A stretch of DNA of 63,524 bases, the filler included, from Deltaproteobacteria bacterium (GTDB lineage: Bacteria; JACQOV01): the NCBI GenBank assembly GCA_016202395.1. It is 5 parts of 5 records of this genome, joined end to end, with 100 filler letters (N's around TTAATTAATTAA, not from the genome) between each part and the next. Parts side by side here need not be neighbours in the genome. Positions count along the whole stretch, not along the records: positions 50,060 to 63,524 come from JACQOV010000081.1; 4 more parts are not named here. The stretch is one strand, 5' to 3'. Each line of letters begins with the position of its first letter. Position 1 is the first letter of the stretch. Shown here one piece after another: positions 29,882-63,524 of this stretch. Below the pieces are notes generated by a model, which searched no databases, was not told where the DNA came from, and was given only the letters and a program-made list of their open reading frames with translations. A program made the translations under genes and the position numbers.

Positions 29882-29982
29882 AGTCGGGGTCAGACCCAAC
29901 TATCTAACTACTTTTCTTTATATAATAAGTATTGACAAATTATATAATAAGAGTATCCTTATTATTCAGGAGGATGTTTTTT

Positions 29983-30240
29983 ATGGCCAAGGTGATGATT
30001 TCGCTCCCCGGAGCGATGCTAAGAATCGTTGATCGCATTGCCAAACAGGAAGGACGTAATCGCAGCGAGCTTATTCGCGAGGCCCTTCGTTCGCAGTATT
30101 TTGAGCGAGATCGAAGTTCTGTGCGGCCTGAAAGAGCCCGGAAGGCATACCAATGGATTGTGGCTAATCCTATACCTCGTGGCAAAATGAGCTCTGTTGA
30201 TTTAATTCGGAAGATGAGGGATGAACGTTGGGCGAAATAA
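29983..30240 (+). CDS. Ribbon-helix-helix (CopG-like) antitoxin
   Basis: KVMISLP..VDRIAKQEGRNRSELIREALR; overlaps PIN gene; upstream TTGACA and duplicated TATATAATAAG. Confidence 0.85.
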   Translation: MAKVMISLPGAMLRIVDRIAKQEGRNRSELIREALRSQYFERDRSSVRPERARKAYQWIVANPIPRGKMSSVDLIRKMRDERWAK

Positions 30241-30656
30241 ATTATGTTGTGGACACTTCGGTTATTGTAAAGTGGTTTGTTGATGAAGAGGGGAGGGAAG
30301 AAGCTCTCCAGTTATTGAACCGATTTTTCCAAAGAGACATCGATCTCGTTATTCCCATTCTGGCTTTTTATGAGTTAGGAAATGTTTTGAAATTACGCAC
30401 GGATGTGTCGTTGGGGAGTAAAACTTCCTTATTAAGAGAATTTTTTGAGTTGGGAGTTGCAGTAGCCCCCTTTGGTGAAGAGATCGCCACAAGGACTTTG
30501 GAGAGAGCGATTGAATACAATCTTAGTTATTATGATGCAACATTCCTCGTGGCCGCTGAAGAAGTGGGAGCCACCCTCATTACCGCAGATAAGCGTTTTT
30601 ACAATAAAGTCCAACGATGTCCTCAAATTCGATTTTTAGGAGAATTAGAATTTTAA
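30228..30656 (+). CDS. vapC: PIN-domain VapC-family toxin
   Basis: VVDTSVIVKWF, YELGNVL, LSYYDATFL, LITADKRF. Confidence 0.88.
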   Translation: MGEINYVVDTSVIVKWFVDEEGREEALQLLNRFFQRDIDLVIPILAFYELGNVLKLRTDVSLGSKTSLLREFFELGVAVAPFGEEIATRTLERAIEYNLSYYDATFLVAAEEVGATLITADKRFYNKVQRCPQIRFLGELEF

Positions 30657-50059: not shown

Positions 50060-50520
50060 ACTCGATGGATCTTCCATAACGAGATCTCCTGTCGATAAAT
50101 CTGTCGGTAGAGAACCTGGAGCTTCTTCTTTCCATACCGAAGATGCTCCTTACGTAAAGCCACCACCCGAGATTCCTCTACTAAAGTCACGGCCCACCGA
50201 CGAACCCTTCGGGGCCTTCGAGATCTCGAATCTAAAGACTCCAGATGCCAACGATCGTAACGATTCTTCCACTGGTAGAAAGTCTTGCGCGAGATCCCAA
50301 AGTACCGACAGGTCTGGCTCGCCGTGTGCCCTCGCTCGTAATAATCCATCCACCTTAACCGCTGTCGGGCTCCTAAAGATAACTCAACGGGAACCGAGAC
50401 CAGCTTCCCAGCCTTTGCAGGCATGACATAAGTGAGGCTCATCATAGCCCCACTATACCTCCCTCTACCCCATCTTCCCATCGATACTCCCACTGTTACC
50501 GATGTATCTCAACCTCTTCA
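50060..50520 (-). mobile_element. Left end of an IS481-like element (transposase N-terminus, start about 50445, and terminal IR)
   Basis: HTH TCRYFGISRKTFYQWKNRY..SRRP..YGKKKL; minus-strand IR TGAAGAGGTTGAGATACATCGGTAACA at 50520-50494. Confidence 0.82.
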
Positions 50521-50536
50521 GGGCCTCTCCCCGAGC

Positions 50537-52324
50537 CTATCCATTGTTCTTTCGCAGGCGGATGCTGCGTGGGGTGATTTCCACTTGCTCATCCTCTTTG
50601 ATGAATTCAATGGCCCGCTCGAGGGTTATCGGAAAAGCGGGGGTCAGAATAATATTTTCGTCTTTTGCGGCAGCGCGCATGTTGCTGAGCTTCTTTTCTT
50701 TGCAAGGATTCACATCTAGATCGCGCTCCCGATTGTGTTCCCCAATAATCATCCCTTTGTAAACGGGGCATCCGGGCTCAATAAAAAGTCTTCCGCGCGG
50801 CTCCAGGTGGTAAAGGGCGTAAGCCACAGCCTCCCCTTGCCGATCGGAAACGAGCGCCCCACTCTTGCGTCCTGTGAAGGCGCCGCGGCAAGGTTCATAG
50901 CCCATCAGGTAAGAATTCATGAGCCCCATCCCTTTGGTATCGGTCAAAAATTGATTCCGATAACCGATGAGCCCGCGGCTTGGGATCGAAAACTCCAGAC
51001 GAATGCGGCCAGAACCATGGTTGATCATGTTGATCATTCTTCCTTGACGCAGAGCCAGTTTTTCAGTGATGATTCCCATGAACTCTTCATGGCAATCGAT
51101 AAAAAGATGCTCGATCGGCTCTAGCGTTACGCCATCTTTTTCTTTGAGAATCACCTGAGGACGGCCGATCGCAACCTCAAACCCCTCGCGGCGCATAGTT
51201 TCTACCAGAATCGCCATTTGAAATTCTCCGCGCCCTTTCACAATAAAACTCTCTCCATTTTTTTCCGCCTCCAAAGAAAGAGAGACGTTATGAAGGATTT
51301 CCTTTTCCAGTCGCTCCAGAATTTTTCGCGATTGAACGATCTTTCCCTCGCGGCCAGAAAGAGGGGAGGTGTTGGCCATAAATCGCATCGAGAGGGTCGC
51401 TTCATCCACCGTGATTCTCTGGAGCGCTTTCGGAGCTGCCACGGTGCAAATGGTATCCCCAATCTCCACATTCTCAATCCCTGAGAGAAGAATGATATCC
51501 CCCGGCGAAACCTCTTCCACCTCTTTCAATCGAATGCCGTCATAAACCTGAAGGCTGGAGACTCGAAGGGGCCTTTGGCTTCCATCCTTGTGGATGCAGA
51601 CGAGGTTGTCGCTCTTTCTAGCGCTCCCATTAAAGATGCGTCCGATAGCTAATCTTCCAACGTAATCGGAGTAAGAAAGATTGATCACCAACATCTGAAA
51701 CGGTTCATTGGGATTAAAAGTGGGTGGAGGGATCTCCTCTAAAATGGCCTCAAAAAGAGGGGTCAAGCTGCTCCCTTTCTCTTCTAAAGTTTTTTGTGCG
51801 ATCCCCTCACGGCCGATGGCATAGAGGATCGGGAAATCGATCTGCGAATCCTCCGCATCGAGATCCATGAAAAGAGCGTAGATTTCATCAATCACCTCCC
51901 GAGGACGCGCATCCTTGCGATCGATTTTGTTAACCACGACGATGATTTTGAGATGAGCTTCGAGAGCTTTTTTAAGCACAAAGCGGGTTTGAGGAAGAGG
52001 CCCTTCGCAGGCATCGACCAAAAGGATGGCGCCATCGACCATCTTGAGCCCGCGCTCCACCTCCCCGCCAAAATCGGAGTGGCCAGGGGTGTCGATGATG
52101 TTGATTTTAACCCCTTTCCAGTAGACGGAGCAGTTTTTCGAGGCGATCGTGATCCCACGCTCCCGCTCCAAATCGAGGTTATCCATCACCCGTTCATCCA
52201 CCACCTGCTGTTCGCGAAACGTCCCGCTCTGGCGGAGGATAAAATCGACCAGAGTCGTTTTTCCATGATCGACATGGGCGATAATGGCAATATTGCGAAT
52301 CTTCTTGTTGGCTTCGTCTTTCAT
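50537..52324 (-). CDS. typA: Translational GTPase TypA/BipA
   Basis: [47 protein letters not shown]. Confidence 0.96.
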
Positions 52325-52435
52325 TTTTATGAGAATTGTCTAGGGTAACCGATAACAGGCCGATCGGCAAGCAACCGCTTGACATTCGAACTAGGGCTTC
52401 TTATGGTTGCAGGGTTACAGATGAGGAGCTCTATT

Positions 52436-52996
52436 ATGATTGAAACCTCTCAATTTAGGATTGGAACGAAGTTGGAAGTAGAGGGGAAACTCTACGAGAT
52501 TGTCGATTTCCAGCACGCTCGAACGGCGCAGCGACGGGCCAATGTCTGGACCAAGATGAAAAATTTGGAGACGGGGCAGGTTTTAGAGCGGAGTTTTTCG
52601 GCAGGACAACAGTTTGACGAACCCGATTTTGAAGAAAAGCCGATGCAATTTTTGTACATCGACGCCGGAGATTACGTTTTCATGGATTCCAAAAACTACG
52701 ACCAAGTTCATATCCCTGGCGAGGCTCACAAAGATGTCACCCGTTTCTTGACCGAAAACATGGACGTGAAGGTTCAGTTCTATAAAGGGAAGGCGATCAC
52801 GATCACTCTCCCTTCCTCGGTGGAGTTAAGAATTGTCGATACCCAGCCAGGAGTTCGAGGAGACACCGTTACTAGCGCCATGAAGCCGGCTAAACTTGAA
52901 AGTGGCGCTACTGTGGATGTCCCTCTTTTTGTGAATGCGGGGGACAAGATTAAGGTGGATACTAGGACGGGTAAATACATCGAACGCGCCAAGTAA
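52436..52996 (+). CDS. efp: Elongation factor P with non-canonical loop
   Basis: MQFLY..FMD..YDQ, PGVRGDT, KPAKLESG, VPLFV, DTRTGKY; GAGGAG SD. Confidence 0.93.
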   Translation: MIETSQFRIGTKLEVEGKLYEIVDFQHARTAQRRANVWTKMKNLETGQVLERSFSAGQQFDEPDFEEKPMQFLYIDAGDYVFMDSKNYDQVHIPGEAHKDVTRFLTENMDVKVQFYKGKAITITLPSSVELRIVDTQPGVRGDTVTSAMKPAKLESGATVDVPLFVNAGDKIKVDTRTGKYIERAK

Positions 52997-53123
52997 GGCA
53001 AATGCAATAAATGTTGTTATACTTCGTTGGCCTCCTTCAGCACTCGCTCAGCGTACACCGCAAAGTACGCTTCGCTCGGCTTCAGTCAGCCGCCTCGTCT
53101 AACAAACATTTCTTGCATTTGCC
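52997..53123. repeat. Palindromic element filling the efp-radA spacer
   Basis: GGCAAATGCAA..TTGCATTTGCC, central GCGTAC..GTACGC. Confidence 0.75.
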
Positions 53124-53143
53124 GATCGAAAACGAGAAATTCT

Positions 53144-54604
53144 TTGGCTAAATCGAAAACAATCTTTGCTTGCCAGCAGTGTGGTCATCAATCTCCGAAG
53201 TGGTTAGGGCGTTGCCCGGACTGCGGAGGATGGAATACCCTTTCCGAAGAGATTCAAGAACGCTCTCCGATCAACGAGTTCACCGGGGCTTGGGGAATTA
53301 GTGAAGGGGTGTCTCCGCGTCCCTTAGTGGAGTTGCAAGGGGAGGAAGGGGAGCGGCACGCCACAGGGATTGGCGAGTTGGATCGAATCTTAGGAGGGGG
53401 GCTTGTTCCCGGCTCTCTGATTCTGATCGGTGGAGATCCTGGGATTGGGAAGTCGACCCTCTTACTTCAAGCGATGGATCGGATTGCGGCCCAAGGGGTT
53501 CCGGTTCTCTACGTCACCGGGGAGGAATCCTCTCGGCAGGTAAAACTTCGGGCCGATCGTTTGGATGTCTCCTCTCCTCATCTCTTTATCGTCTCCGAAA
53601 CGGCCCTTGACCGAGTTTTGGAAGCCATTCGCAAGATTCAGCCGAAGGTGGTTGTGGTGGATTCCGTTCAGACCCTCTTTGTTCCCGACCTCAGCTCGGC
53701 TCCGGGGAGTGTGAGTCAGGTGCGAGAATCGGCGGGGAGGCTGATGGCTTTGGCCAAGACGGAAGGGACGACGATTTTTCTTGTGGGGCATGTCACCAAA
53801 GATGGGAGCATTGCGGGGCCTCGGGTTTTGGAGCACATGGTGGACACCGTCCTTTATTTTGAAGGAGGGGGAGGGCATGCCTATCGGATTATTCGCGCGG
53901 TAAAGAATCGTTTTGGCTCCAGCAATGAGATCGGGGTTTTTGAGATGCGTGACCGAGGGCTCGTGGAGGTGGCCAATCCTTCGGAGCTCTTTTTGGCCGA
54001 GCGTTCCTCAGGGGTTTCGGGCTCCACCGTGGTGGCCACCCTCGAAGGGACGCGCCCTTTGCTGGTGGAGATCCAAGCGCTCGTGGGGACCACCGTTTTT
54101 GGAACCCCTCGACGAACCACACTCGGTGTGGATCACAACAAGGTGTCATTGCTGGTGGCGGTTTTGGAGAAGCGGGCCGGCCTGCAACTGATGGGGCACG
54201 ATGTTTTTGTCAATGTGGTTGGAGGGGTGGAGTTGAATGAGCCTGCGATCGATCTGGCCATTACGTTGGCGGTGGCTTCGAGTTTTCTCGATCGGCCAAT
54301 CGATTCGAACACGATCATTTTGGGAGAGGTGGGATTAGGAGGCGAGGTGCGCGCGATTCAGCAGATCTCTATTCGGCTGAAAGAGGCCGAGCGGTTGGGA
54401 TTCAAGCGATGCCTCCTTCCGGAAAGCAACCGAAAGAAACTCGATGTTTCAACCTCGATGACTTTGGAAGGGATCTCTAGTGTGGATCAGGCTCTTCGCC
54501 TGGCCTTAGAAACTAAGAAAGCCGTTGGACGAAACACCTCCAAGGTGGTATCCGAGAAGGGGCTCCCCTCACCCATTCCCTCTCCCCAAAGGGGAGAGGG
54601 TTAG
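53144..54604 (+). CDS. radA: DNA repair protein RadA/Sms
   Basis: CQQCG..CPDC zinc finger, GDPGIGKST, KNRFG, GEVGLGGE; TTG start. Confidence 0.96.
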   Translation: MAKSKTIFACQQCGHQSPKWLGRCPDCGGWNTLSEEIQERSPINEFTGAWGISEGVSPRPLVELQGEEGERHATGIGELDRILGGGLVPGSLILIGGDPGIGKSTLLLQAMDRIAAQGVPVLYVTGEESSRQVKLRADRLDVSSPHLFIVSETALDRVLEAIRKIQPKVVVVDSVQTLFVPDLSSAPGSVSQVRESAGRLMALAKTEGTTIFLVGHVTKDGSIAGPRVLEHMVDTVLYFEGGGGHAYRIIRAVKNRFGSSNEIGVFEMRDRGLVEVANPSELFLAERSSGVSGSTVVATLEGTRPLLVEIQALVGTTVFGTPRRTTLGVDHNKVSLLVAVLEKRAGLQLMGHDVFVNVVGGVELNEPAIDLAITLAVASSFLDRPIDSNTIILGEVGLGGEVRAIQQISIRLKEAERLGFKRCLLPESNRKKLDVSTSMTLEGISSVDQALRLALETKKAVGRNTSKVVSEKGLPSPIPSPQRGEG

Positions 54605-54613
54605 GGTGAGGGG
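54565..54613. repeat. REP-like hairpin overlapping the radA stop
   Basis: CCCCTCACCC-ATT-CCCTCTCCCC-AAA-GGGGAGAGGG-TTA-GGGTGAGGGG. Confidence 0.85.
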
Positions 54614-54622
54614 CAATTCTTC

Positions 54623-55297
54623 ATGAATAAAAAAATCTTACCATCGATATTGGCAGGAGACCTTTCGAGACTCTCGGAAGAAGTGAAGGCCATTGAAGCC
54701 GCAGGAGTGGATGGAGTCCATCTCGACGTAATGGATGGGCATTTTGTTCCGAACCTCACGTTTGGGCCGGAGGTGATTGCAGCTCTTCGTGGAAAAACAA
54801 AACTCTTTTTTGATGTTCACCTCATGATCTCTAATGCTGAGAAATATTTGGATCTTTATCGAAAAGCGGGGGCCGATTCGATCACTGTCCATGGGGAGGC
54901 CTGCACTCATCTGCACAAGGCGGTTCAAGAGATTAAAAAGTTGGGAGCTCAGGCCGGCGTGGCGTTAAATCCTGCGACCCCTCTTTCGGTCGTGGAGCCG
55001 ATTTTGCCGGAGATCGATCTTTTGTTGGTGATGACGGTGAATCCCGGTTTTGCGGGGCAGTCTTTTATCGAAACGACACTCCCCAAGATCCAAGCGGCCC
55101 GGCAGATGATCGATCGAGCGGGATTGAAAACGATTTTGGAGGTCGATGGCGGCATCAAGTTGAATAACATTGGAAAGATCGCCGCTTTAGGTCCCGATTG
55201 GTTTGTCTCTGGCAGCGGAATCTTTGCCACCCCCGATTACAAAACCACCGTCGCCGCCCTGCGCCACTCCATCCATCCGCGAAACTTTCCCCATTAA
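54623..55297 (+). CDS. rpe: Ribulose-phosphate 3-epimerase
   Basis: HLDVMDGHFVPNLTFG, DVHLM, MTVNPGF, EVDGG, VSGS. Confidence 0.97.
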   Translation: MNKKILPSILAGDLSRLSEEVKAIEAAGVDGVHLDVMDGHFVPNLTFGPEVIAALRGKTKLFFDVHLMISNAEKYLDLYRKAGADSITVHGEACTHLHKAVQEIKKLGAQAGVALNPATPLSVVEPILPEIDLLLVMTVNPGFAGQSFIETTLPKIQAARQMIDRAGLKTILEVDGGIKLNNIGKIAALGPDWFVSGSGIFATPDYKTTVAALRHSIHPRNFPH

Positions 55298-55335
55298 GTG
55301 TTTGATCTTGTGCATTTTTATGGTATATTTGTTGC

Positions 55336-55557
55336 ATGTATATTGCAAAAAAAATCTATCAAGACATTCGAGAGTTATCGGAATCAGCCCAGGCTGAAGT
55401 TCTCGACTTTATCGAGTTTCTAAGGTCCAAAAAAACAAGTCGGAATGCTGCTTCTAATTCAGAGTGGAGTTCTCTATCCTTGACTTCTGCGATGCGAGGC
55501 ATGGAAAAGGAGAAATCTCCCCAATATAATCTTAAAGATCTCAAAGAAAAATTTTAA
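55336..55557 (+). CDS. DUF2281-like putative antitoxin
   Basis: LSESAQAEVLDFIEFL..WSSLSLTSAMRGME..Y..DLKE; TAATG overlap with next gene. Confidence 0.7.
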   Translation: MYIAKKIYQDIRELSESAQAEVLDFIEFLRSKKTSRNAASNSEWSSLSLTSAMRGMEKEKSPQYNLKDLKEKF

Positions 55558-56336
55558 TGAAAAGCCACGGCCAAGTTGTTCTTTTTTCTTTCCTTCAAAC
55601 GGATCTAGAAATAAACTATCCTTCTTTCTTTCTGTATCTTAGATTTTGCTTTGCTGGATTTTTAATTTATTGCCTAACCGGGTGCACTATTTTTCATGTT
55701 TCTGTTGATTCACTTGCAAATTCCTCTATACATAAGGAGACATACGTTTTACTTCCTGGCATGGAAAAAGTAGGACTTAACGATCTTGAATATGCCGAAT
55801 ATTCAAATTATGTTCGACGGGCTTTGATTAGTTCAGGGTATGTTCCTTCTGAGAAATTTGATGAAATAGAAATATTCATTTTCATGAGTTATGGAATTGG
55901 TGACCCAATCACGGCCTATAAAACGTATTCAGTTCCTCAATACGGTAAGATAAGTGGTGGCACAAGTAGTTTCTCTGCCCTCACCGCAGGAACAGGTGGA
56001 ACAAGCTCGACAATTGGGACTATAACCGAACCCACCCAATATGGGGTCGTTGGTTCAAGAACCCAGGTAAGAAGTGAAACAACCTATTTCCGTTATCTTG
56101 TATTGGAAGCTATTGATGCAGGAGCTTTTAAAAAAGATAAAAAAATTATTCCTGTTTGGAAAACTACAGTTACAAGTCGAGGCAGTAGCGATGATCTTAG
56201 AAGAGTCTTTCCTATATTGGTGGCTGCAGCTAGGCCTTATATTGGAACAAATACCGAACACAAAATTAAAGTGAGACTGAAAGAAAAGAATCCCGAAGTT
56301 TTGTTTATAAAAGGGATAGATGCTTCTTCTAAATGA
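55557..56336 (+). CDS. Lipoprotein of unknown function fused in frame to an N-terminal PemK/MazF-like relic
   Basis: First 18 aa MKSHGQVVLFSFLQTDLE resemble PemK N-termini; then hydrophobic stretch and lipobox LTGC; AT-rich. Confidence 0.6.
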   Translation: MKSHGQVVLFSFLQTDLEINYPSFFLYLRFCFAGFLIYCLTGCTIFHVSVDSLANSSIHKETYVLLPGMEKVGLNDLEYAEYSNYVRRALISSGYVPSEKFDEIEIFIFMSYGIGDPITAYKTYSVPQYGKISGGTSSFSALTAGTGGTSSTIGTITEPTQYGVVGSRTQVRSETTYFRYLVLEAIDAGAFKKDKKIIPVWKTTVTSRGSSDDLRRVFPILVAAARPYIGTNTEHKIKVRLKEKNPEVLFIKGIDASSK

Positions 56337-57370
56337 AATCTGAATTCCAATTGGGGAATATTGTAGTAGTCGTTGGTAATGGATTGTCTATAGATTTAAT
56401 AGAGAAGTGTTTTCATGACAAGTTCGAAGTTGATCTAACAAACTTTTTTAAACATGGTTCATCCATTTCGGTCCCTCCTAAAAGGGATAAGGAATCATTT
56501 CTTTCAGATAAATATCTTCCTTTCCTTTGGAGCTATGGTGCCAGATCAGATTTGACAAAGGAGAAATCCGATGAGATTTTTGAAACTTTAATCACACTGG
56601 TTTCCATCTGGTTTGGTAGGAGACGGGAGATAAGCGAGCCAATACCAGACTTCATCTATGCTTATCAGGAACTGTTGTATTTTATTCGTTATAAAATGAT
56701 CTATTATTATGAGATGGCGAAAGAAAAAATTAATTATGGTATTTGGCCATGGGTGAATTTTCTTAAACATGTGAGTAAAGAAACTCAAGTGACAATTGTT
56801 ACCTATAATTATGACATTTGGTTAGAAGAAGCTTTGGAACATACAGGGATTCCTTTCTATAGAACGAGTTTAAAAGAAGATAATAATAAAAACCATATGC
56901 CAATCATCAAGCCTCATGGCTCAATTGATTTAAGGCAAGATGTTCGGATTAGTAAACGTGAATTTCCTTTAGGGAAACAACTTATTATCGCAAACGCATC
57001 TAATAAAACTCTTGAGATTCCCAAACATGATCTACACGAGGTTTTTCCACAGGTCGATCTTATTCCACCCAGTGCTTCTGCTATGGATGTGTATCAGTCA
57101 CCGATGATGTTTACCTGGTGGTGTAATGAACATGATAAAGTGATAAAAGCATGTAGTTCGGCAACCCATGTCATTTTTCTAGGGTTGTCTTACAACTATT
57201 GGGATAGATCGGAGTTGAATAGTGTTATTAGTGCCCTTTCTAGTACTGCCAAAATTCATTTAGTCAATCCAAGTCCTCCAAAAGTTATGCAGAATATTCT
57301 GGCTTCCCTTTTTCCAAATTCCGAATTATCGAGCACCGTTGAGGATTTTGTTTCTAAGTGGAAATTATAA
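56333..57370 (+). CDS. SIR2-like (SIR2_2/AbiH-type) domain protein
   Basis: VVVVGNGLS, IVTYNYD, IIKPHGS, IFLGLSY, IHLVNP in sirtuin-fold order; ATGA-coupled to upstream gene; AT-rich. Confidence 0.75.
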   Translation: MKSEFQLGNIVVVVGNGLSIDLIEKCFHDKFEVDLTNFFKHGSSISVPPKRDKESFLSDKYLPFLWSYGARSDLTKEKSDEIFETLITLVSIWFGRRREISEPIPDFIYAYQELLYFIRYKMIYYYEMAKEKINYGIWPWVNFLKHVSKETQVTIVTYNYDIWLEEALEHTGIPFYRTSLKEDNNKNHMPIIKPHGSIDLRQDVRISKREFPLGKQLIIANASNKTLEIPKHDLHEVFPQVDLIPPSASAMDVYQSPMMFTWWCNEHDKVIKACSSATHVIFLGLSYNYWDRSELNSVISALSSTAKIHLVNPSPPKVMQNILASLFPNSELSSTVEDFVSKWKL

Positions 57371-57380
57371 TGAAAATAAT

Positions 57381-57447
57381 AGGGGTCAAATCGCGTGTTG
57401 AACAGTTCTTGCATTCCAAGTACTAGTCAACAAACGACTTGACCCCT
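57381..57447. repeat. 67-bp imperfect hairpin, left boundary of TA block
   Basis: AGGGGTCAA..TGTTGA..TCAACA..TTGACCCCT; inverted homologue at 58899-58964. Confidence 0.8.
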
Positions 57448-57515
57448 TTCTTCTACGTAACTTAATCACCCAAGCCTTGCCGATTTTAATAGTATAGTGT
57501 ATTATAGTGTCGTAC

Positions 57516-57869
57516 ATGGCCCAGTTTCAATTCATTCTGTGGCTTGCTTATTGGTATCTTCAAACTGCGACCTTTGAATTTCAATGGGACAAAGGCAATT
57601 CAACCAAAAGTATTGCCAAACATGGTGTATCTATCGAAGAAGTGGAGTCCATTTTTTCTCTCAAACTGGCTGTTCCTATTGGCAGGCAGATTTCGCCTAC
57701 AGTGAGTGAAGAGAGATTGTGCGTTGTCGGTCCTTCACAGGGAGGACGAATCCTATCTGTAGTTTTTAGTTTGCGTGAAGGTCGTGTTCGGCCGATTAGT
57801 TCACGCATCGCGAGTCGCAAAGAAAGGAGTCTTTATGAAAAAGTACGCAAGACGATTGAAGAGCTATGA
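57516..57869 (+). CDS. brnT: BrnT-family toxin
   Basis: FQWDKGN..KHGVSIEEVESIF..EERL..VRPISSRIASRKER..YE; alternative GTG start 57507. Confidence 0.85.
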   Translation: MAQFQFILWLAYWYLQTATFEFQWDKGNSTKSIAKHGVSIEEVESIFSLKLAVPIGRQISPTVSEERLCVVGPSQGGRILSVVFSLREGRVRPISSRIASRKERSLYEKVRKTIEEL

Positions 57870-58068
57870 CAAAATCGATTTTGACCCCGAAGAAATCATT
57901 GCCGGTATGAGCCGTTTGAAAGGTGGCCGGCGCAAACCCACCAGTGTGGCTCTTGAGGAAGATTTGCTTGAAGAACTCAAATCTTTCGCTAATAAGCGTG
58001 GAATACCTTATCAAGTTCTAATGCGACTTTTGATTGCGGACGGTATTACGAAGTTAAAGGCCGCTTAA
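57835..58068 (+). CDS. BrnA/CopG-like antitoxin
   Basis: TSVALEEDLLEELK..GIPYQVLMR; AAGGAG SD; overlaps brnT. Confidence 0.8.
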   Translation: MKKYARRLKSYDKIDFDPEEIIAGMSRLKGGRRKPTSVALEEDLLEELKSFANKRGIPYQVLMRLLIADGITKLKAA

Positions 58069-58070
58069 GA

Positions 58071-58148
58071 GAAGAACGTTACTTTTGTTTAGGGAAAGTG
58101 AATCGGAAAATATTAACCGTGCGGTTCGTTTACAGAGAGAATGAAATT
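58071..58148 (+). pseudogene. Internal fragment of a second BrnT-like toxin
   Basis: EERYFCLGKVNRKILTVRFVYRENEI; no start codon, no C-terminus. Confidence 0.7.
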
Positions 58149-58247
58149 TCAACTTGTTGTTCCAGAGGAAACTTTAAAGGTTACCATTGCTTTGACAAAA
58201 ACGAGTTTGGAGTTTTTCAAAAGGGAAGCAAAAAAACACCACTCTTT

Positions 58248-58514
58248 CTAGGCCGCTTTCCTCTCTTTTATGACTTGGTCCAGATCGTAGGTTGCCTGGA
58301 GGTTCATCCAAAGTTTCGGCGATGTTCTCAATACCTTTGCAAGGTCAAGGGCTGAGTTTGCCGTCATGCCTCGTTTCCCCTTGATTAGTTCATTGAGATG
58401 GGTCCGAGTCCAGCTGAGCTTTTCAGCGAGTTCAGCTTGAGTTATGCCAGCCGGCTCGATAAACTCCTCTAATAAAATTTGTCCGGGATGAAAAGGATTT
58501 TTAGGTAATCTCAC
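58248..58514 (-). CDS. higA: HigA-family antitoxin
   Basis: HPGQILLEEF, LNELIKGKRG, LWMNLQ..YDL. Confidence 0.92.
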   Translation of the reverse strand: MRLPKNPFHPGQILLEEFIEPAGITQAELAEKLSWTRTHLNELIKGKRGMTANSALDLAKVLRTSPKLWMNLQATYDLDQVIKERKAA

Positions 58515-58533
58515 GATCTCCTCCTTACGGGTG

Positions 58534-58824
58534 TTAATGATAGTCTAGAATTCTGACATCCCATGCGTTCCCCTTTTCCCATCGAAACACTACCCTCCAC
58601 TGGTCGTTGATTCGTATCGAGTAAAAACCCCTCCACCCGCCTTTTAATGCCTCGAGCCTATTGCCAGGAGGGGCTTTTAAATCGTTCAGTTCCGCTGCGT
58701 CATGCAAGTAGAGAAGCTTTCTCCGAGCTACTCGCCATAGCTCGGCTGGAAACCGCCTCACCGCTTTGGAAACTCTGTCATCAAATAAGTCCTCTGCAAG
58801 GTGGTTCCCAAAGCCTTCGATCAT
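58534..58824 (-). CDS. higB: HigB-family toxin
   Basis: ARRKL..DLKAPPGNRLEALKG..YSIRINDQWRVVFRW..DYH. Confidence 0.92.
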   Translation of the reverse strand: MIEGFGNHLAEDLFDDRVSKAVRRFPAELWRVARRKLLYLHDAAELNDLKAPPGNRLEALKGGWRGFYSIRINDQWRVVFRWEKGNAWDVRILDYH

Positions 58825-58830
58825 GTTTAG

Positions 58831-58859
58831 AGGTTATCGTAACTCGATAATTTTGTCAA
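58831..58859 (-). promoter_or_regulatory. higBA promoter and operator
   Basis: TTGACA-17nt-TAACCT on minus strand; palindrome TTATCG-N5-CGATAA at 58834-58850. Confidence 0.7.
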
Positions 58860-58898
58860 GGCTCAATGATGAAAGGTGAAAGGGAAGAAAGGAAAAAA

Positions 58899-58964
58899 GA
58901 GGTCCGGTCGCGTGTTGACTAGTGCTTGGAATCTGGAAACCATTCAACATGCGACCGAACCCCT
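58899..58964. repeat. 66-bp imperfect hairpin, right boundary of TA block
   Basis: CGGTCGCGTGTTGA..TCAACATGCGACCG; reverse complement shares TCGCrTGTTGAA and ATTCCAAGyACTAGTCAACA with 57381-57447. Confidence 0.8.
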
Positions 58965-59065
58965 TTCCTTCTTTATTCCGCTAGTTTCAAATATTTTTTT
59001 AAACCGAAGCAACAAATAGCCTTCTGGGATCGATAAAGAATGGAAAGGATTTTGAGGTAAGTTTC

Positions 59066-59368
59066 ATGAGGAAAGTATTAACTTTGCAGAAAGTTCTAAA
59101 GGAGGAATTCAAAGATCCTGAGTTCCGTTTTTATTTTGAGCGGGCCCGAGCCGTTCAAGAGATCGGTTGGATGGTTCGAAAAGCTCGCAAGAAGGTCAAA
59201 CTGACTCAAATGGAGTTGGCTCACCATGCAAAGACAACGCAGGAAGTAATTTCTCGCATGGAATCAGGAGAGGATATTCGGATTCCATCTTTAGAGCTTT
59301 TGGAAAGGGTTGCTCATGCTCTTGGAGCCAAACTTTTGATCTCTTTTGAATACGATGTTGCGGCCTAA
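59066..59368 (+). CDS. XRE-family HTH protein (orphan antitoxin-like)
   Basis: KDPEF, ARKKVKLTQMELA..TTQEVISRMESG..PSLELLERVAHALG. Confidence 0.85.
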   Translation: MRKVLTLQKVLKEEFKDPEFRFYFERARAVQEIGWMVRKARKKVKLTQMELAHHAKTTQEVISRMESGEDIRIPSLELLERVAHALGAKLLISFEYDVAA

Positions 59369-59464
59369 TTTGCGATACGGTAGCGCTTTTTTCCGAAGGG
59401 CATGAAAAAGATACGCCTTCACTTTAACTCGAAGGCGCTGCCAACGGGTGGCGCTTGGCATCGT

Positions 59465-60382
59465 TCAATGTCCTCCTGGAATCATCTGAAAAGGGTTGGG
59501 GATGAAAGTCAAAATGAAAAGGAGAATGCTCACCCAGCCTGTGATTTTTTGGCGTCGATTTAAGGGGAGGATGGGGTCTAACGGAGGAGGATGTCCAATC
59601 CCTAACAACATGGCAAGTAATCCCCACATCAACCATCCTTGCCAGGTGAAAAGCCCTAGAGCCACAAGAATTAGGACCATCCCTTTCGAGACCGAGCGAT
59701 GCCTTTCCCCAAAGATCGCATAGGAGATATGCCCTCCATCGAGCTGCCCGATCGGCAACAGGTTCAAACAGGTGACCAAAAAACCGATCCAAGCAGCGAA
59801 GGCAATGGGGTGCAAAATGAGATCGGAATTCTTTGCTATCGGGCCTAATGTCATCCATTCCAGTCCTTGAGTGATTAACGAAGGGCCGAGTCGAATCCCC
59901 TCGGCAGGGACTTCGGAAAGAGGGATGACTTGAGAGAGTTTAAGTCCGATGATGTACATCGGAATAGCAATCACAGCGCCGGCAATCGGCCCTGCGGCTC
60001 CGACATCCAAAAGATCTCCTTTATTAGTGACGGGGGATCTCATTTTGATAAAAGCTCCAAAGGTCCCCAAAAAAGTGGGGGCCGGGATGAAATAAGGGAG
60101 AGAGACGTCGACCCCTCGAGAGCGTCCCGTCAGGTAATGGCCGAATTCGTGGGTTCCTAAGATGAAAAGCAAGGTCAGCGCAAAAGGGGCCCCTTCGATG
60201 ATACGGTTCGGCTCTTTAAAAATATTGATTCCCTGTTGGAGAGCCCCTGCGGCAAAGGTTGTGGCTAGCGTTAAAAGGAATAAAATGAGATGGATTCGAA
60301 TCGATCGCTTCGGCTTTTGGAATCCATAAACTCCCGGTTGATTGGGATCTTCTTTGAGGGTGATCTCTGAGGGATTTGTCAT
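59465..60382 (-). CDS. Site-2 protease (M50) family membrane protein
   Basis: HEFGH, AAGP, NLLPIGQLDGGH. Confidence 0.92.
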   Translation of the reverse strand: MTNPSEITLKEDPNQPGVYGFQKPKRSIRIHLILFLLTLATTFAAGALQQGINIFKEPNRIIEGAPFALTLLFILGTHEFGHYLTGRSRGVDVSLPYFIPAPTFLGTFGAFIKMRSPVTNKGDLLDVGAAGPIAGAVIAIPMYIIGLKLSQVIPLSEVPAEGIRLGPSLITQGLEWMTLGPIAKNSDLILHPIAFAAWIGFLVTCLNLLPIGQLDGGHISYAIFGERHRSVSKGMVLILVALGLFTWQGWLMWGLLAMLLGIGHPPPLDPILPLNRRQKITGWVSILLFILTFIPNPFQMIPGGH

Positions 60383-60505
60383 GATTTCACTTCTAGCAAC
60401 CCTCACTCTTGGGGTCAAGAAGCGATCCACCGCTTTGCTTGACATTTGGGCGCGATTTCGATCTACTACACCTTGCTCGCATTAACCGAAAGAAAGGGGA
60501 CTTCT

Positions 60506-61489
60506 ATGTTATCCAAAGCGACCGCAGTTGTTTTCTTAATTACTACCTTAGTTTTAGGCTATCTCTATTGGGATGTTAAAAATAGTGGGACCCATCCTGG
60601 AGCGCAAAACATAGCCCAGGTGGAGGGATCTGCTCCTTTTACAGGGAGCCCGGAGGAGCAGAAGCAGAGAATCTCGAATTACCTTCGCGAAACCCTCAAC
60701 ATGCCAAGCTCTGTTCAGATTGAGGTGGGGGAGATCCAAACCTCTGATATTCCGGGGCTTCAAGAAGGGGAGCTGAATTACCAACGAGGGGAACAAGCCC
60801 AAAAAGGGAACTTCTACCTCACCTCCGATGGGAATTATCTCATTCTAGGTCGAGTGATGAATCTGGCGGTCGATCCTCGGCAAGCGGTCGTCTCCAAGAT
60901 CTCCATGAAAGACGCTGTGATCCAGGGGGCCAAAGACGCTCCAGTGACACTCGTCGAATACTCCGATCTTCAGTGTCCTTTTTGTGGTCGAGCTCACAAA
61001 ACCGTTGAAGAATTGGTCAAAGCGAATGAAGGAAAACTGAAGTGGGTGTGGAAACATTTCCCTCTTTCTACGATTCACAAATGGGCTGAAGATGGGGCGG
61101 TGGCTGCGGAGTGTGTGCGGCAGCAGAATGAAGAGGCTTTCTGGAAATTTGCCGATTACGTTTTTGAGAATCAAAAGAGCATCAACAACAGCAATCTGGA
61201 GCAGAAAGTTGGGGAGTTTGCTCAACAGAATGGATTGAAAGACAAGAAGATTAAATCTTGCATGAAAGATAAGAACGTGCGAGAGAAGGTTCAGGCCGAT
61301 GCGAAAGAGGGGGGAGAGGTTGGTGTCAGTTCCACTCCTACCTTCTTTGTGAATGGTCGGAAGGTGTCTGGGGCCAAGCCTTTGGCGGAATTCCAATCGA
61401 TTGTGGATGAGGAGTTAGGAATTAAGAAACCCGAAGAGGCGGCTCCAACCACAGAGAGCGGAGCTCCCAAAGCCCCGCCGCAGGGTTAG
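60506..61489 (+). CDS. Membrane-anchored DsbA-family thioredoxin-fold protein
   Basis: EYSDLQCPFC, KHFPL, GVSSTPTFFVNG; extra N-terminal DsbC/G-like domain. Confidence 0.88.
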   Translation: MLSKATAVVFLITTLVLGYLYWDVKNSGTHPGAQNIAQVEGSAPFTGSPEEQKQRISNYLRETLNMPSSVQIEVGEIQTSDIPGLQEGELNYQRGEQAQKGNFYLTSDGNYLILGRVMNLAVDPRQAVVSKISMKDAVIQGAKDAPVTLVEYSDLQCPFCGRAHKTVEELVKANEGKLKWVWKHFPLSTIHKWAEDGAVAAECVRQQNEEAFWKFADYVFENQKSINNSNLEQKVGEFAQQNGLKDKKIKSCMKDKNVREKVQADAKEGGEVGVSSTPTFFVNGRKVSGAKPLAEFQSIVDEELGIKKPEEAAPTTESGAPKAPPQG

Positions 61490-61512
61490 TTTTTAGGGAT
61501 TAGGGATTATAG

Positions 61513-61546
61513 AGGGCGTAGGGGTTTCTCTACGCCCTATTTTTTT
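61513..61546 (+). terminator. Rho-independent terminator
   Basis: AGGGCGTAGGG..TCTACGCCCT stem followed by a T-run. Confidence 0.75.
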
Positions 61547-61547
61547 A

Positions 61548-61621
61548 CGGGGCGTGGCTCAGCCTGGTAGAGCGCTTGGTTCGGGACCAAGAAGTCCGCG
61601 GTTCAAATCCGCGCGCCCCGA
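61548..61621 (+). tRNA. tRNA-Pro(CGG)
   Basis: Acceptor CGGGGCG/CGCCCCG, anticodon arm CTTGG-TTCGGGA-CCAAG, T-loop GTTCAAATC; CCA not encoded. Confidence 0.95.
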
Positions 61622-61627
61622 ATTTTG

Positions 61628-61675
61628 ACCCCCTCTTTGTTCTCCCCCTTAGGATAAGGGGGAGATAGAGGGGGT
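61628..61675. repeat. REP-like hairpin between tRNA-Pro and the nadE stop
   Basis: ACCCCCTCT..TCTCCCCCTTA-GGA-TAAGGGGGAGA..AGAGGGGGT. Confidence 0.7.
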
Positions 61676-63369
61676 TAAACTGTTGGTTTGTAGGCATTCG
61701 TGATCGGCATGCGCCGATCCTTCCCGTAAGCTTTGGGGGTAATTTTGATTCCTGGAGCGGCTTGTCGTCGTTTGTACTCACTTCGATCGATCATTTCAAT
61801 CACCTGTTGCACTATTTTGGCGTCAAACCCTTTTGCGGCAATCTCTTCACAACTTTTATCCTCTTCAACATAAGCTTGAATAATAGGGTCGAGAATTTCG
61901 TAAGGCGGGAGCGTGTCTTGATCTGTTTGGTTTGCTTTGAGCTCTGCGGTGGGAGGTTTAGTCAAGATCGATTCTGGAATCATCGGCGAAGAGGCTAGAG
62001 AGTTTCGGTATCGAGAGAGTTCATAGACGAGCATTTTGGGGACATCTTTTAGAATCGCAAAGCCTCCGGCCATGTCTCCGTAGAGGGTTGCGTACCCTAC
62101 ACTCATCTCGCTTTTATTCCCTGTGGTCAACACTAACCAGCCGAATTTATTGGAAAGGGCCATGAGAAGATTTCCCCGAATGCGGGCTTGAAGATTCTCT
62201 TCCGCAATGTTGGGCCCCCTATTTTTGAAATGGGGCTTAAGCTCTTGGAGATAGGTCTCAAACGGAGGTTCGATGGAGATCTCCAGAAGAGCGATACTTA
62301 AGTTTTTGGCTATAGCCTCCGCGTCTCGACGGCTCTCTTGTGAAGTGTATCGCGAAGGAAGCATGACACCCGTCACATTCTCTTTTCCCAGGGCGTCCGC
62401 CGCAATCACAGCCGTCAGAGCGGAGTCGATTCCACCACTTAAACCCAGCGCCGCTTTTTCGAAACGGTTCTTTCGGAAATAATCTTTCAATCCTAGAACC
62501 AAAGCTCGATAGATCTCCTCGAGGCGATCCGGCTCATCCACATGACGTGGAGGGAGTGGTTTTTTTCTTTTTATGGTTTTTGGAACAGGGAGCTCCAGAA
62601 ATTCCACTGGAGTTTTGACACTTGTCTTTTTCGAGACCGGAATTTCAAGGTCGACAACCAAGAACTCCTCTTTCAAGGCCTCCCCTCGAGCCACCACGTT
62701 GCCGTTCGGATCAATGACGAGACTATGTCCATCAAAAACAAGCTCGTCTTGCCCTCCCACTAAGTTATTGTAAGCGATGAAGGTCTTATTTTGAAGAGCT
62801 CGCTCACAGAGCATCCGCTGACGCTCCGCCCATTTTCCTGCATGATAAGGGGACGAATTGATGTTGAGAATCAATTGGGCGCCTCCCACAGAACATTGAG
62901 AGCGGGCCGGGCCTTGCGCAATCCAGATGTCTTCGCAGATGTTCACACCCCATCGAATGTCGCCATAGAGGTAAACCGGGCATCGTTTTCCCGATTCGAA
63001 ATATCGTTTTTCATCGAACACACCGTAGTTGGGGAGATGAGTTTTATGATAGATGTCGGCCATTTTCCCGTTGTGTAAAATGGCGGCGGCGTTATAAAGA
63101 GGGCCCTTCCCATCCACGAAACCCACAACGGCCGTAATCCCTTCTGTTTCTGGAACAATTTTCTGAAGCGCTTTCTGATTGTCTCTCACAAATCGGAGTT
63201 TTAAGAGGAGATCCTCCGGTGGATAGCCCGTAATGGCCAGTTCGGGGAAAAGAACGATGTCCACCTCTTTCTCTTTGGCCTTTTGGAGGTCATGGATAAT
63301 TTTATCGACGTTTCCTTGAAGGTCTCCTACCGTTAAATTGATTTGAGCCAGCCCAAGCCGAATTAGCAT
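61675..63369 (-). CDS. nadE: Glutamine-dependent NAD+ synthetase
   Basis: Nitrilase domain (FPEL, K, ICED) plus GLSGGIDS, ENLQARIRG, GNKSE, PTAEL; start MLIRLG. Confidence 0.96.
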   Translation of the reverse strand: MLIRLGLAQINLTVGDLQGNVDKIIHDLQKAKEKEVDIVLFPELAITGYPPEDLLLKLRFVRDNQKALQKIVPETEGITAVVGFVDGKGPLYNAAAILHNGKMADIYHKTHLPNYGVFDEKRYFESGKRCPVYLYGDIRWGVNICEDIWIAQGPARSQCSVGGAQLILNINSSPYHAGKWAERQRMLCERALQNKTFIAYNNLVGGQDELVFDGHSLVIDPNGNVVARGEALKEEFLVVDLEIPVSKKTSVKTPVEFLELPVPKTIKRKKPLPPRHVDEPDRLEEIYRALVLGLKDYFRKNRFEKAALGLSGGIDSALTAVIAADALGKENVTGVMLPSRYTSQESRRDAEAIAKNLSIALLEISIEPPFETYLQELKPHFKNRGPNIAEENLQARIRGNLLMALSNKFGWLVLTTGNKSEMSVGYATLYGDMAGGFAILKDVPKMLVYELSRYRNSLASSPMIPESILTKPPTAELKANQTDQDTLPPYEILDPIIQAYVEEDKSCEEIAAKGFDAKIVQQVIEMIDRSEYKRRQAAPGIKITPKAYGKDRRMPITNAYKPTV

Positions 63370-63524
63370 AAAATGGACACAACTATCCCTTTCCTCATTT
63401 CTTTTGTCAAGTTTCATGAAAATCAAAGGAGAGAATTGCCTAAAAAATAGGCATAGATGCCTCATTTTTAATCAGGTTTGGATTTTTTTGAGGCCTTCCT
63501 TTGGCGAGGAAATTATCTTAACAC

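Follow-up and report, generated by a model that had tools for sequence, protein, structure and literature searches.

Two inverted hairpins around a toxin-antitoxin block are likely REPIN-like dimers of TIRYT-type transposase ends

In a deltaproteobacterial metagenome-assembled genome (1.9 Mb in 108 contigs, 49% G+C, 89% complete; hereafter the source genome), two related hairpins lie in inverted orientation on either side of a block of two toxin-antitoxin gene pairs, which raises the question of whether such hairpins mark a system that captures and exchanges these genes or whether they are repeats of a more ordinary kind. The window analyzed here is the whole stretch of 63,524 nucleotides (nt), composed of five contigs of this assembly with runs of N between them, and all positions are given in the numbering of the whole window. 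Both hairpins, A and B, sit on contig C51 (window 50060-63524). We consider them very likely to be REPIN-like, non-autonomous dimers of transposase ends of the TIRYT/TIRtron type; as a sequence family they are new, but their kind is known, if little studied, and they are an ordinary genomic repeat. Their coordinates are as follows.

57381..57447, plus strand: hairpin A, REPIN-like dimer with two inverted transposase-end arms (covariance model, 92.1 bits)
57382-57400: core of the left arm of hairpin A, GGGGTCAAATCGCGTGTTG
57428-57446, minus strand: core of the right arm of hairpin A
58899..58964, minus strand: hairpin B, another dimer of this family, whose centre has the opposite orientation to that of A (87.2 bits)
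58899-58917 (plus strand) and 58945-58963 (minus strand): arm cores of hairpin B

Hairpins A and B are inverted homologues of each other, as a repeat search paired 57381-57453 with 58892-58964 over 73 nt at 74% complementarity, and each hairpin is in addition a palindrome of its own, with 31-nt arms reported for hairpin A within 57381-57447. Whichever strand is folded, both reach energies of -32 to -42 kcal/mol (z of -6.0 to -8.3), and none of 200 shuffles folded as well. The aligned copies have the central sequence ATTCC-AAG(T/C)ACTAGTC in common, and because this centre is asymmetric and conserved, an orientation can be assigned and A and B can be counted as inverted. The outer ends of all copies are GGGGTCA and TGACCCC, and the internal stem of an arm reaches at most 5 bp (GTCAA/TTGAC). 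Across the six genomic copies of the family, 89.7% of the stem cells are paired, and two-sided changes that keep the pairing are found in 5 of the 21 pairs, a count matched by 8 of 500 column shuffles; the compensatory changes go from AU to CG at columns 14/67 and to GC at columns 15/66. When the partner columns are shifted by 1-3 positions, pairing falls to 29-42%. An earlier note on this DNA, made from the sequence alone, had described the pair as diverged reverse-complement hairpins with stem changes that preserve pairing and with a conserved loop, and our analysis agrees with it on all three counts.

A profile search combined with the covariance model identified six full-length copies on five contigs of the source genome (two on C51 and one each on C4, C37, C86, and C103), with covariance scores between 76.8 and 92.1 bits and a shared arm, GGGGTCAAGTCGCGTGTTG. 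This arm is also present as about eight single copies with 0-3 mismatches, located on C5, C30 (two), C34, C95, C104 (two), and C106, one of the C104 arms being a truncated full copy. The fuzzy query used for the arms was GGGGTC...TCGCGTGTTG; only its low-mismatch matches are meaningful, because at four mismatches the count equals the shuffled level (145 versus 133-145). The pairwise identity of the six dimers ranges from 51 to 87%, with a mean of 67%, and none of the 12 arms in these copies adjoins a GTAG.

The connection between this arm and a transposase was found in G061, an unrelated genome of 8.6 Mb. We scanned species-representative genomes with the pattern GGGGTCNNRTCGCGTGTTGA, which required TGTTGA and missed the commoner G061 variant, TGTTGT. 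Among the 14 loci obtained, two (L035 and L040, both from G061) are real by the covariance model; the others are not members by that model and were taken as chance matches. The same pattern yielded 17 loci in metagenomes, one of them a weak member (L057, 17.5 bits). G061 contains the 19-nt arm pattern 40 times (38 exact and 2 with one or two mismatches), and a control pattern gave 0 matches there. At least eight of its dimers are complete and are nearly perfect palindromes lacking extrahelical bases; a further three are truncated where their contigs stop. Within the same genome, inverted single arms at L084:36 (plus strand) and L084:1073 (minus strand) enclose an open reading frame (ORF) of 329 amino acids (aa), whose product matches Pfam Y1_Tnp ("transposase IS200 like," E value of 7e-6). 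This gene exists as a single exact copy, together with four more distant paralogues of 29-45% identity. A second transposase paralogue (L129, on contig C62 of G061), which is partial and 43% identical, is flanked by a perfect 25-nt repeat, AGGGGTCAAGTCGAGACTTGCGACA, with its right-hand copy duplicated; the outer 12 nt of this repeat are as in the hairpin family, and its inner part is different.

Only 1 of 200 relatives of G061 has the arm, as a single copy with one mismatch, and because an identical 19-nt arm is nevertheless present in two unrelated genomes, the comparison of sequences points to a putative horizontal transfer of the arm. A plasmid collection searched with blastn in distant mode gave no arm match, and viral contigs contained no exact arm. 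We also compared 60 relatives of the source genome, all of them no closer than domain level, and 2 of the 60 have weak hairpins with the outer stem alone in common.

The source genome itself codes for two related proteins, of 323 and 322 aa, both with a Y1_Tnp domain and a Bac_DnaA_C-like domain. Their identity is 51% between the two and 33-37% with the G061 protein, and on NCBIfam's REP_Tyr_transpos model, for which the cut-off is 80, they reach 83.5 bits. Each of these resident genes is enclosed by an inverted repeat of its own that starts with GGGGTCAG, and a single arm of such a sister family lies within the window.

GGGGTCAGACCTAACTATCTAACTATTTG: inverted repeat of the first resident gene, 29 nt, perfect
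GGGGTCAGTTTTAAGTTTTTAAGTA: inverted repeat of the second resident gene, 25 nt, 96%
29887..29910, plus strand: sister-family single arm GGGTCAGACCCAACTATCTAACTA, the end type of the transposase gene on contig C28

For the two resident repeat types, dispersed arms number 9 and 19, respectively, and the second one forms six hairpin dimers; a further family, GGGTCAGGCTTCGGTATTTCGGTATT, has five arms. Counting the hairpin family, four repeat families with the outer tag GGGGTCA are co-resident in this genome. In three of them an 8-mer repeated in tandem makes up the inner arm (TTTTAAGT, CTAACTAT, and TTCGGTAT, each present twice), while that of the hairpin family has a looser GTCG/GTTG/GTT(C/G) periodicity. 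The single arm at 29887 is found between a gene of 1583 aa (25130-29881) and an RHH-PIN (RHH, ribbon-helix-helix) pair (29932-30240 and 30228-30656), just upstream of the pair. The six dimers of the family with a resident transposase are 88-97% identical (mean, 93%), versus a mean of 67% in the orphan family, so that one genome offers a natural contrast between an active and a relic family. The simplest reading is that the hairpin family is old, no longer copied, and orphaned in the source genome; alternatively, its cognate gene could be in the unassembled 11%. A third, weak Y1_Tnp match in the source genome (contig C66, 18.6 bits) has no arms beside it.

Other repeats were seen in the course of these searches. 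The dimers of the sister family with TTTTAAG (on C2, C11, C24, C36, C71, and C93) contain one more GGGGTCAG, the third, which is internal and immediately precedes the right arm; their right half is thereby bounded by GGGGTCAG...CTGACCCC; the internal word may be the trace of an insertion target. The GGGTCAAAAATCTTGCGAGTGAAGCG repeat, initially clustered with the GGGTCA arms, was set apart as a different and larger repeat, with sequence conserved on both sides of the word. It has 30 genomic places, including window 116 (plus strand) and 16229 (minus strand), and two alternative upstream flanks; as most of its copies are within about 200 nt of contig ends, it breaks the assembly. Finally, an unrelated genome, G017 (loci L018 and L021), has hairpins of the form GGGGGTCAGGCC...GGCCTGACCCCC, which have only the outer stem in common with the hairpin family and probably belong to yet another GGGGTCAG-tagged repeat family.

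We identify the hairpins as dimers of TIRYT-type ends because the genes and repeats described above fit the published description of TIRYTs. As set out in the account of Di Nocera, De Gregorio and Rocco (2013, PMC3733652), these are RAYT-like genes with long terminal inverted repeats (TIRs) on either side, the resulting units being called TIRtrons; the TIR consensus is GGGGWSAS, and the repeats occur as singles, dimers, or clusters. According to passages of Quentin et al. (2018, PMC6006769), subclass 2.1 of TnpA-REP takes in 20 of 26 TIRYT genes and is characterized by Bac_DnaA_C, HTH_23, or HTH_28 C-terminal domains and by flanking GGGG[AT][CG]A[CG]; the same text maps onto it group 1 of the RAYT groups, which were defined by Bertels et al. 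(2017, PMC5581495). The arm starts that we observed are GGGGTCAA, GGGGTCAG, or GGGGTCC, and the arms flanking the resident genes begin with GGGGTCAG, which fits eight of the eight positions of GGGGWSAS. In full-text searches of the literature, the terms TIRYT and TIRtron proved rare, and the arm sequence of the hairpin family was not found with four words taken from the arm.

Several points weigh against this identification. The arm-to-transposase link for the hairpin family comes from one other genome, G061, whose 329-aa protein reaches 61.5 bits on REP_Tyr_transpos, under the cut-off of 80, and shows no detected DnaA-C domain. We were unable to find any transposase gene flanked by the hairpin-family arm in the assembled 89% of the source genome, and the arm end GGGGTCAA fits seven of the eight positions of GGGGWSAS. 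No target-site duplication is visible by eye at the six copies, and no empty site was seen. The two-sided pairing changes (5 of 21 pairs) require past selection on the hairpin, which an identification as transposase-end dimers only assumes. Last, canonical toxin-antitoxin operons adjoin four of the six full copies, and the other two stand beside a Fic gene and a lone helix-turn-helix (HTH) gene, respectively; on small numbers, this is more adjacency than simple tolerance would predict.

If the hairpins are dimers of transposase ends, a mechanism can be proposed from better-known enzymes. IS200/IS605 TnpA and the RAYT of E. coli process single-stranded DNA and recognise hairpins, as Quentin et al. 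state (PMC6006769). By analogy, the two arms would pair into a hairpin when the DNA is single-stranded, and the cognate Y1 enzyme could then recognise this hairpin, cut near the conserved GGGGTCA end, and copy or move the element. The inner arm, being family-specific, would probably set which enzyme acts. Because the families have a common GGGGTCA but different inner arms, including the repeat of the second G061 gene, their comparison suggests, as a hypothesis, a two-part recognition by a shared tag and inner boxes. A common cutting tag with family-specific boxes, perhaps read by the DnaA-C-like domain, might allow the families to coexist without cross-talk; the role of this C-terminal domain in subclass 2.1 is left open in the subclass description (PMC6006769). 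The combination of a shared tag and family-specific inner arms may be of interest for work on REPINs and on HUH enzymes, as may the arm common to two unrelated genomes and the contrast between the 93% and 67% families.

The genes around the two hairpins are listed below.

56333..57370, plus strand: SIR2_2-domain gene, 345 aa, with its stop 10 nt before hairpin A
57507..57869, plus strand: brnT-like toxin gene (PF04365, E value of 8.7e-18), a neighbour outside the repeat
57835..58068, plus strand: brnA-like CopG/RHH antitoxin gene (PF12441, E value of 6.5e-8)
58248..58514, minus strand: higA-like HTH antitoxin gene (PF01381, E value of 8e-9)
58534..58824, minus strand: higB-like toxin gene (PF05015, E value of 2.3e-17)
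59066..59368, plus strand: lone XRE-type HTH gene, about 100 nt past hairpin B

The BrnT/BrnA and HigB/HigA pairs are convergent and are enclosed by hairpins A and B. Hairpin A is placed between the SIR2_2 gene, 10 nt past its stop, and brnT, which starts about 60 nt further on; hairpin B is between the divergent higB and XRE genes. A sigma-70-like site of brnTA at 57477-57505 lies downstream of hairpin A, as do the direct repeats of brnTA. Rfam gave no match within 55000-61000 at E values up to 1. Upstream of the block, at 55336-57370, a DUF2281 gene (73 aa), a DUF4136-like gene (259 aa, under the Pfam cut-off), and the SIR2_2 gene (345 aa) overlap end to end, and the last of them has weak matches to PADLOC SIR2 models (E value of 1.8e-5); this run may be a small defence-type operon.

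How close the association with toxin-antitoxin genes is can be assessed from the neighbours of all the repeats. The genes beside the six dimers are brnT, higB, a Phd/PIN_3 operon, a Phd/PIN operon (with Yip1 on the other side), a DUF4172-Fic gene (with ArsA on the other side), and an 85-aa XRE HTH gene (with carbonic anhydrase on the other side). Of the single arms, some adjoin Fic fragments accompanied by an HTH gene, or a DUF433 gene, and others are close to a PIN_3 gene or within arrays of RHS-core-like genes. The TTTTAAG family has 11 sites, of which 2 adjoin Phd/PIN operons and one is by a formyltransferase gene with MazF one gene away, and at least 5 have housekeeping genes on either side (those for isocitrate dehydrogenase, aconitase, MoaE/MobA, cytochrome c together with Fe-S assembly, and outer-membrane efflux). 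In the ACCTAAC family, one of the seven sites adjoins an RHH/PIN operon (window 29887). We also measured proximity, for PIN genes only: the source genome has 24 PIN matches and is 6.1% intergenic by greedy ORF cover, and 4 of 37 repeat sites are within 400 nt of a PIN match versus 3.6% of intergenic positions (binomial P of 0.04). In G061, 0 of 21 loci with the same arm have a match to a toxin or antitoxin family among 134 ORFs, a scan that took, among ORFs with 70 aa or more and no further than 900 nt from the arms, up to eight of the longest, so small genes may be crowded out in this G+C-rich DNA. The neighbours there are ordinary metabolic and signalling genes (aminotransferase, cytochrome bd, GGDEF, radical SAM, histidine kinase, AcrB/TetR, xanthine dehydrogenase, and others like them). 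The link with toxin-antitoxin genes in the source genome is therefore weak, if suggestive, and does not belong to the repeat family as such; the location of the hairpins most likely reflects tolerance of insertions in a compact, toxin-rich genome rather than a function in common.

The RHS-core-like genes form a group of their own. There are 25 genes in which the motif [YFH][FYVI]H.D[HR]LGS follows a signal-like N terminus, many of them in tandem arrays (on C5, C30, C95, C104, C28, and other contigs). A GGGGTC-type single arm, from any of three families, precedes the start codon of 7-9 of the 25 by 20-45 nt, some of these arm/RHS-like junctions being paralogous copies. Seven arm-preceded ORFs of this type were scanned against Pfam and gave no match. 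A segment, CCGCTTTCGCGGGAATGAC(G), recurs next to the single arms upstream of such genes (on C95, C104, C5, and C30), and ORFs across it read ...SFPRKRES... or ...FRGNDG..., translated repeats which we take to be of a sort found in many environmental genomes. A more ambitious proposal is that the arms are no passive repeats but joints at which resident, domesticated Y1 enzymes insert or exchange toxin genes, a Y1/HUH analogue of the integron for toxin cassettes. If true, it would explain why arms of four families stand at toxin-antitoxin operons and before the start codons of tandemly arrayed RHS-core-like orphan toxin genes; we regard it as quite improbable.

Closely related to that proposal is the possibility that a composite mobile unit, with the two hairpins as its ends, carries the 1.4-kb toxin-antitoxin block or, more generally, that the arms are the borders of toxin cassettes shuffled by Y1 enzymes. 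Several observations would suit it: two dimers enclose the block in inverted orientation, four of the six full copies adjoin canonical toxin-antitoxin operons, sister-family arms adjoin three more, and 7-9 of the 25 RHS-core-like genes have a single arm of one of three families 20-45 nt ahead of the start codon. However, the genome has no second copy of the block, a repeat is found on just one side of its other toxin-antitoxin operons, 0 of 21 G061 loci have a toxin-antitoxin family, PIN proximity is only weakly enriched (P of 0.04), and several of the junctions between arms and RHS-like genes are paralogous duplicates rather than independent events. Nor were rearrangements seen. The region matches six DNA sequencing runs from two groundwater studies, with no RNA run among those listed, and we placed contigs from four of these runs on 54600-61500 at a depth of 3-8. 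They reproduce the arrangement, and neither the hairpins nor the block showed changed letters, indels, or joints of the excision, inversion, circle, or skipping type; at this depth, and with contigs that drop rare variants, that result carries little weight. A single "opposite strands" joint (58451/59142, with a 31-nt side) was present in one contig each of runs X1 and X4; it links the higA-like and XRE genes and is probably due to HTH-gene paralogy or an artefact of the assembly graph. A composite unit is therefore clearly unlikely. We also find it unlikely that the hairpins work mainly on RNA or transcription, as bidirectional intrinsic terminators or insulators that separate toxin-antitoxin operons from their neighbours, with the family resemblance being secondary. 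Hairpin A does lie 10 nt past the SIR2_2 stop and is followed by a T-rich tail, CCCCTTTCTTCT, a loose fit that could make it a terminator; four of the six copies are just 3' of a gene, and REPs are described as mostly downstream of coding regions and as possible RNA elements in the TIRYT account (PMC3733652). Hairpin B can have no such role, as it sits between divergently transcribed genes where there is nothing to terminate. Moreover, three of the six copies lack a T-rich tail, a simple terminator scan flagged neither hairpin, and termination leaves unexplained why an identical 19-nt arm encloses a transposase gene in an unrelated genome.

The remaining explanations assign the hairpins to other proteins. 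Toxin-antitoxin genes are common integron cassettes, and the hairpins resemble attC sites in being imperfect palindromes of attC-like length (60-80 nt) next to such genes, with a GTTGAAC in the left arm that fits GTTRRRY. Yet the outer ends are GGGGTCA/TGACCCC and not R'' (RYYYAAC) and R' (GTTRRRY), the GTTRRRY-like word is in the inner 5' arm and not at the 3' end, and the G061 dimers are perfect palindromes without the asymmetry of extrahelical bases. Instead of a co-oriented array, A and B are mutually inverted and the copies are spread over five contigs; the genome has only two tyrosine recombinase (PF00589) genes, on C62 and C63, away from any copy. That the hairpins are attC sites, or cassette sites of another tyrosine recombinase, is scarcely credible. 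We consider it very improbable, too, that they are double-stranded operators for nearby HTH proteins such as HigA and XRE. Palindromes upstream of two toxin-antitoxin operons and beside HTH genes on C51, C4, and C106 would fit that role, but other copies stand 3' of genes or have Yip1, ArsA, and carbonic anhydrase genes as neighbours, the same arm in G061 is beside unrelated genes, and brnTA has its sigma-70-like site and its own direct repeats downstream of hairpin A.

Identification as REPIN-like transposase-end dimers accordingly keeps one part of what had been proposed for this locus and gives up another. The earlier note had read the region as two convergent toxin-antitoxin modules, accompanied by a SIR2 gene and a lone HTH gene, and had remarked on the lack of attC core sites; gene calls and Pfam confirm the former, and the GGGGTCA/TGACCCC ends the latter. 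It had then offered integron-like or REP/RAYT-type sites as the explanation. The REP/RAYT side of this is favoured by the arm-flanked Y1 gene of G061 and by the two resident genes, while the integron side is opposed by the absence of cores, of an array, and of a nearby recombinase. The covariance-model scan that it advised recovered six copies, with four of the six at toxin-antitoxin operons, but no cognate Y1 gene beside any of them in this genome. The larger idea, a cassette accretion that builds defence islands, is not supported by the 0 of 21 loci in G061 or by the PIN proximity (P of 0.04), and the inversion or circle junctions that it suggested looking for were absent at the hairpins from the contigs of the four runs, at a depth of 3-8. 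The main value of the analysis is that a tempting reading is closed off, as the hairpins reveal no new cassette-capture system for defence genes; they are best described as leftover or slowly evolving transposase-end dimers, of a class described in 2013.

Compared with known systems, the hairpins are different from miniature inverted-repeat transposable elements (MITEs) such as Correia and ERIC, which we set apart on their general description: both are short, non-coding, and intergenic, with terminal inverted repeats, but the six copies show no visible target-site duplication and the associated enzyme is of the Y1/HUH and not the DDE type. Classical REPINs have copy numbers in the hundreds, while only six dimers are present here; the hairpin family also lacks a GTAG tag, its arms are not the classical short REP palindromes, and the transposase has an extra C-terminal HTH domain. 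What the hairpins have in common with the REPIN/RAYT systems of Pseudomonas and Enterobacteria, as portrayed by Bertels and Rainey (2011, PMC3116915, PMC3337134), are inverted repeats that form a long hairpin with a spacer, many non-autonomous copies for one repeat-flanked transposase gene (in G061, 40 arms and one exact gene), and the preservation of hairpin pairing. The likeness extends further for TIRtrons and TIRYTs. As in these, a RAYT-like Y1/HUH gene of about 320-330 aa, with a DnaA-C-like HTH domain in the two source-genome genes, is tightly enclosed by inverted repeats of 25-29 nt that begin with GGGGTCA(G/A), and further copies of these repeats are scattered singly, in dimers, and in clusters, with several families residing together. 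The hairpin family departs from them in that the last base of its tag is A where the consensus has S, and in that, within the source genome, it consists of diverged copies without an assembled cognate gene.

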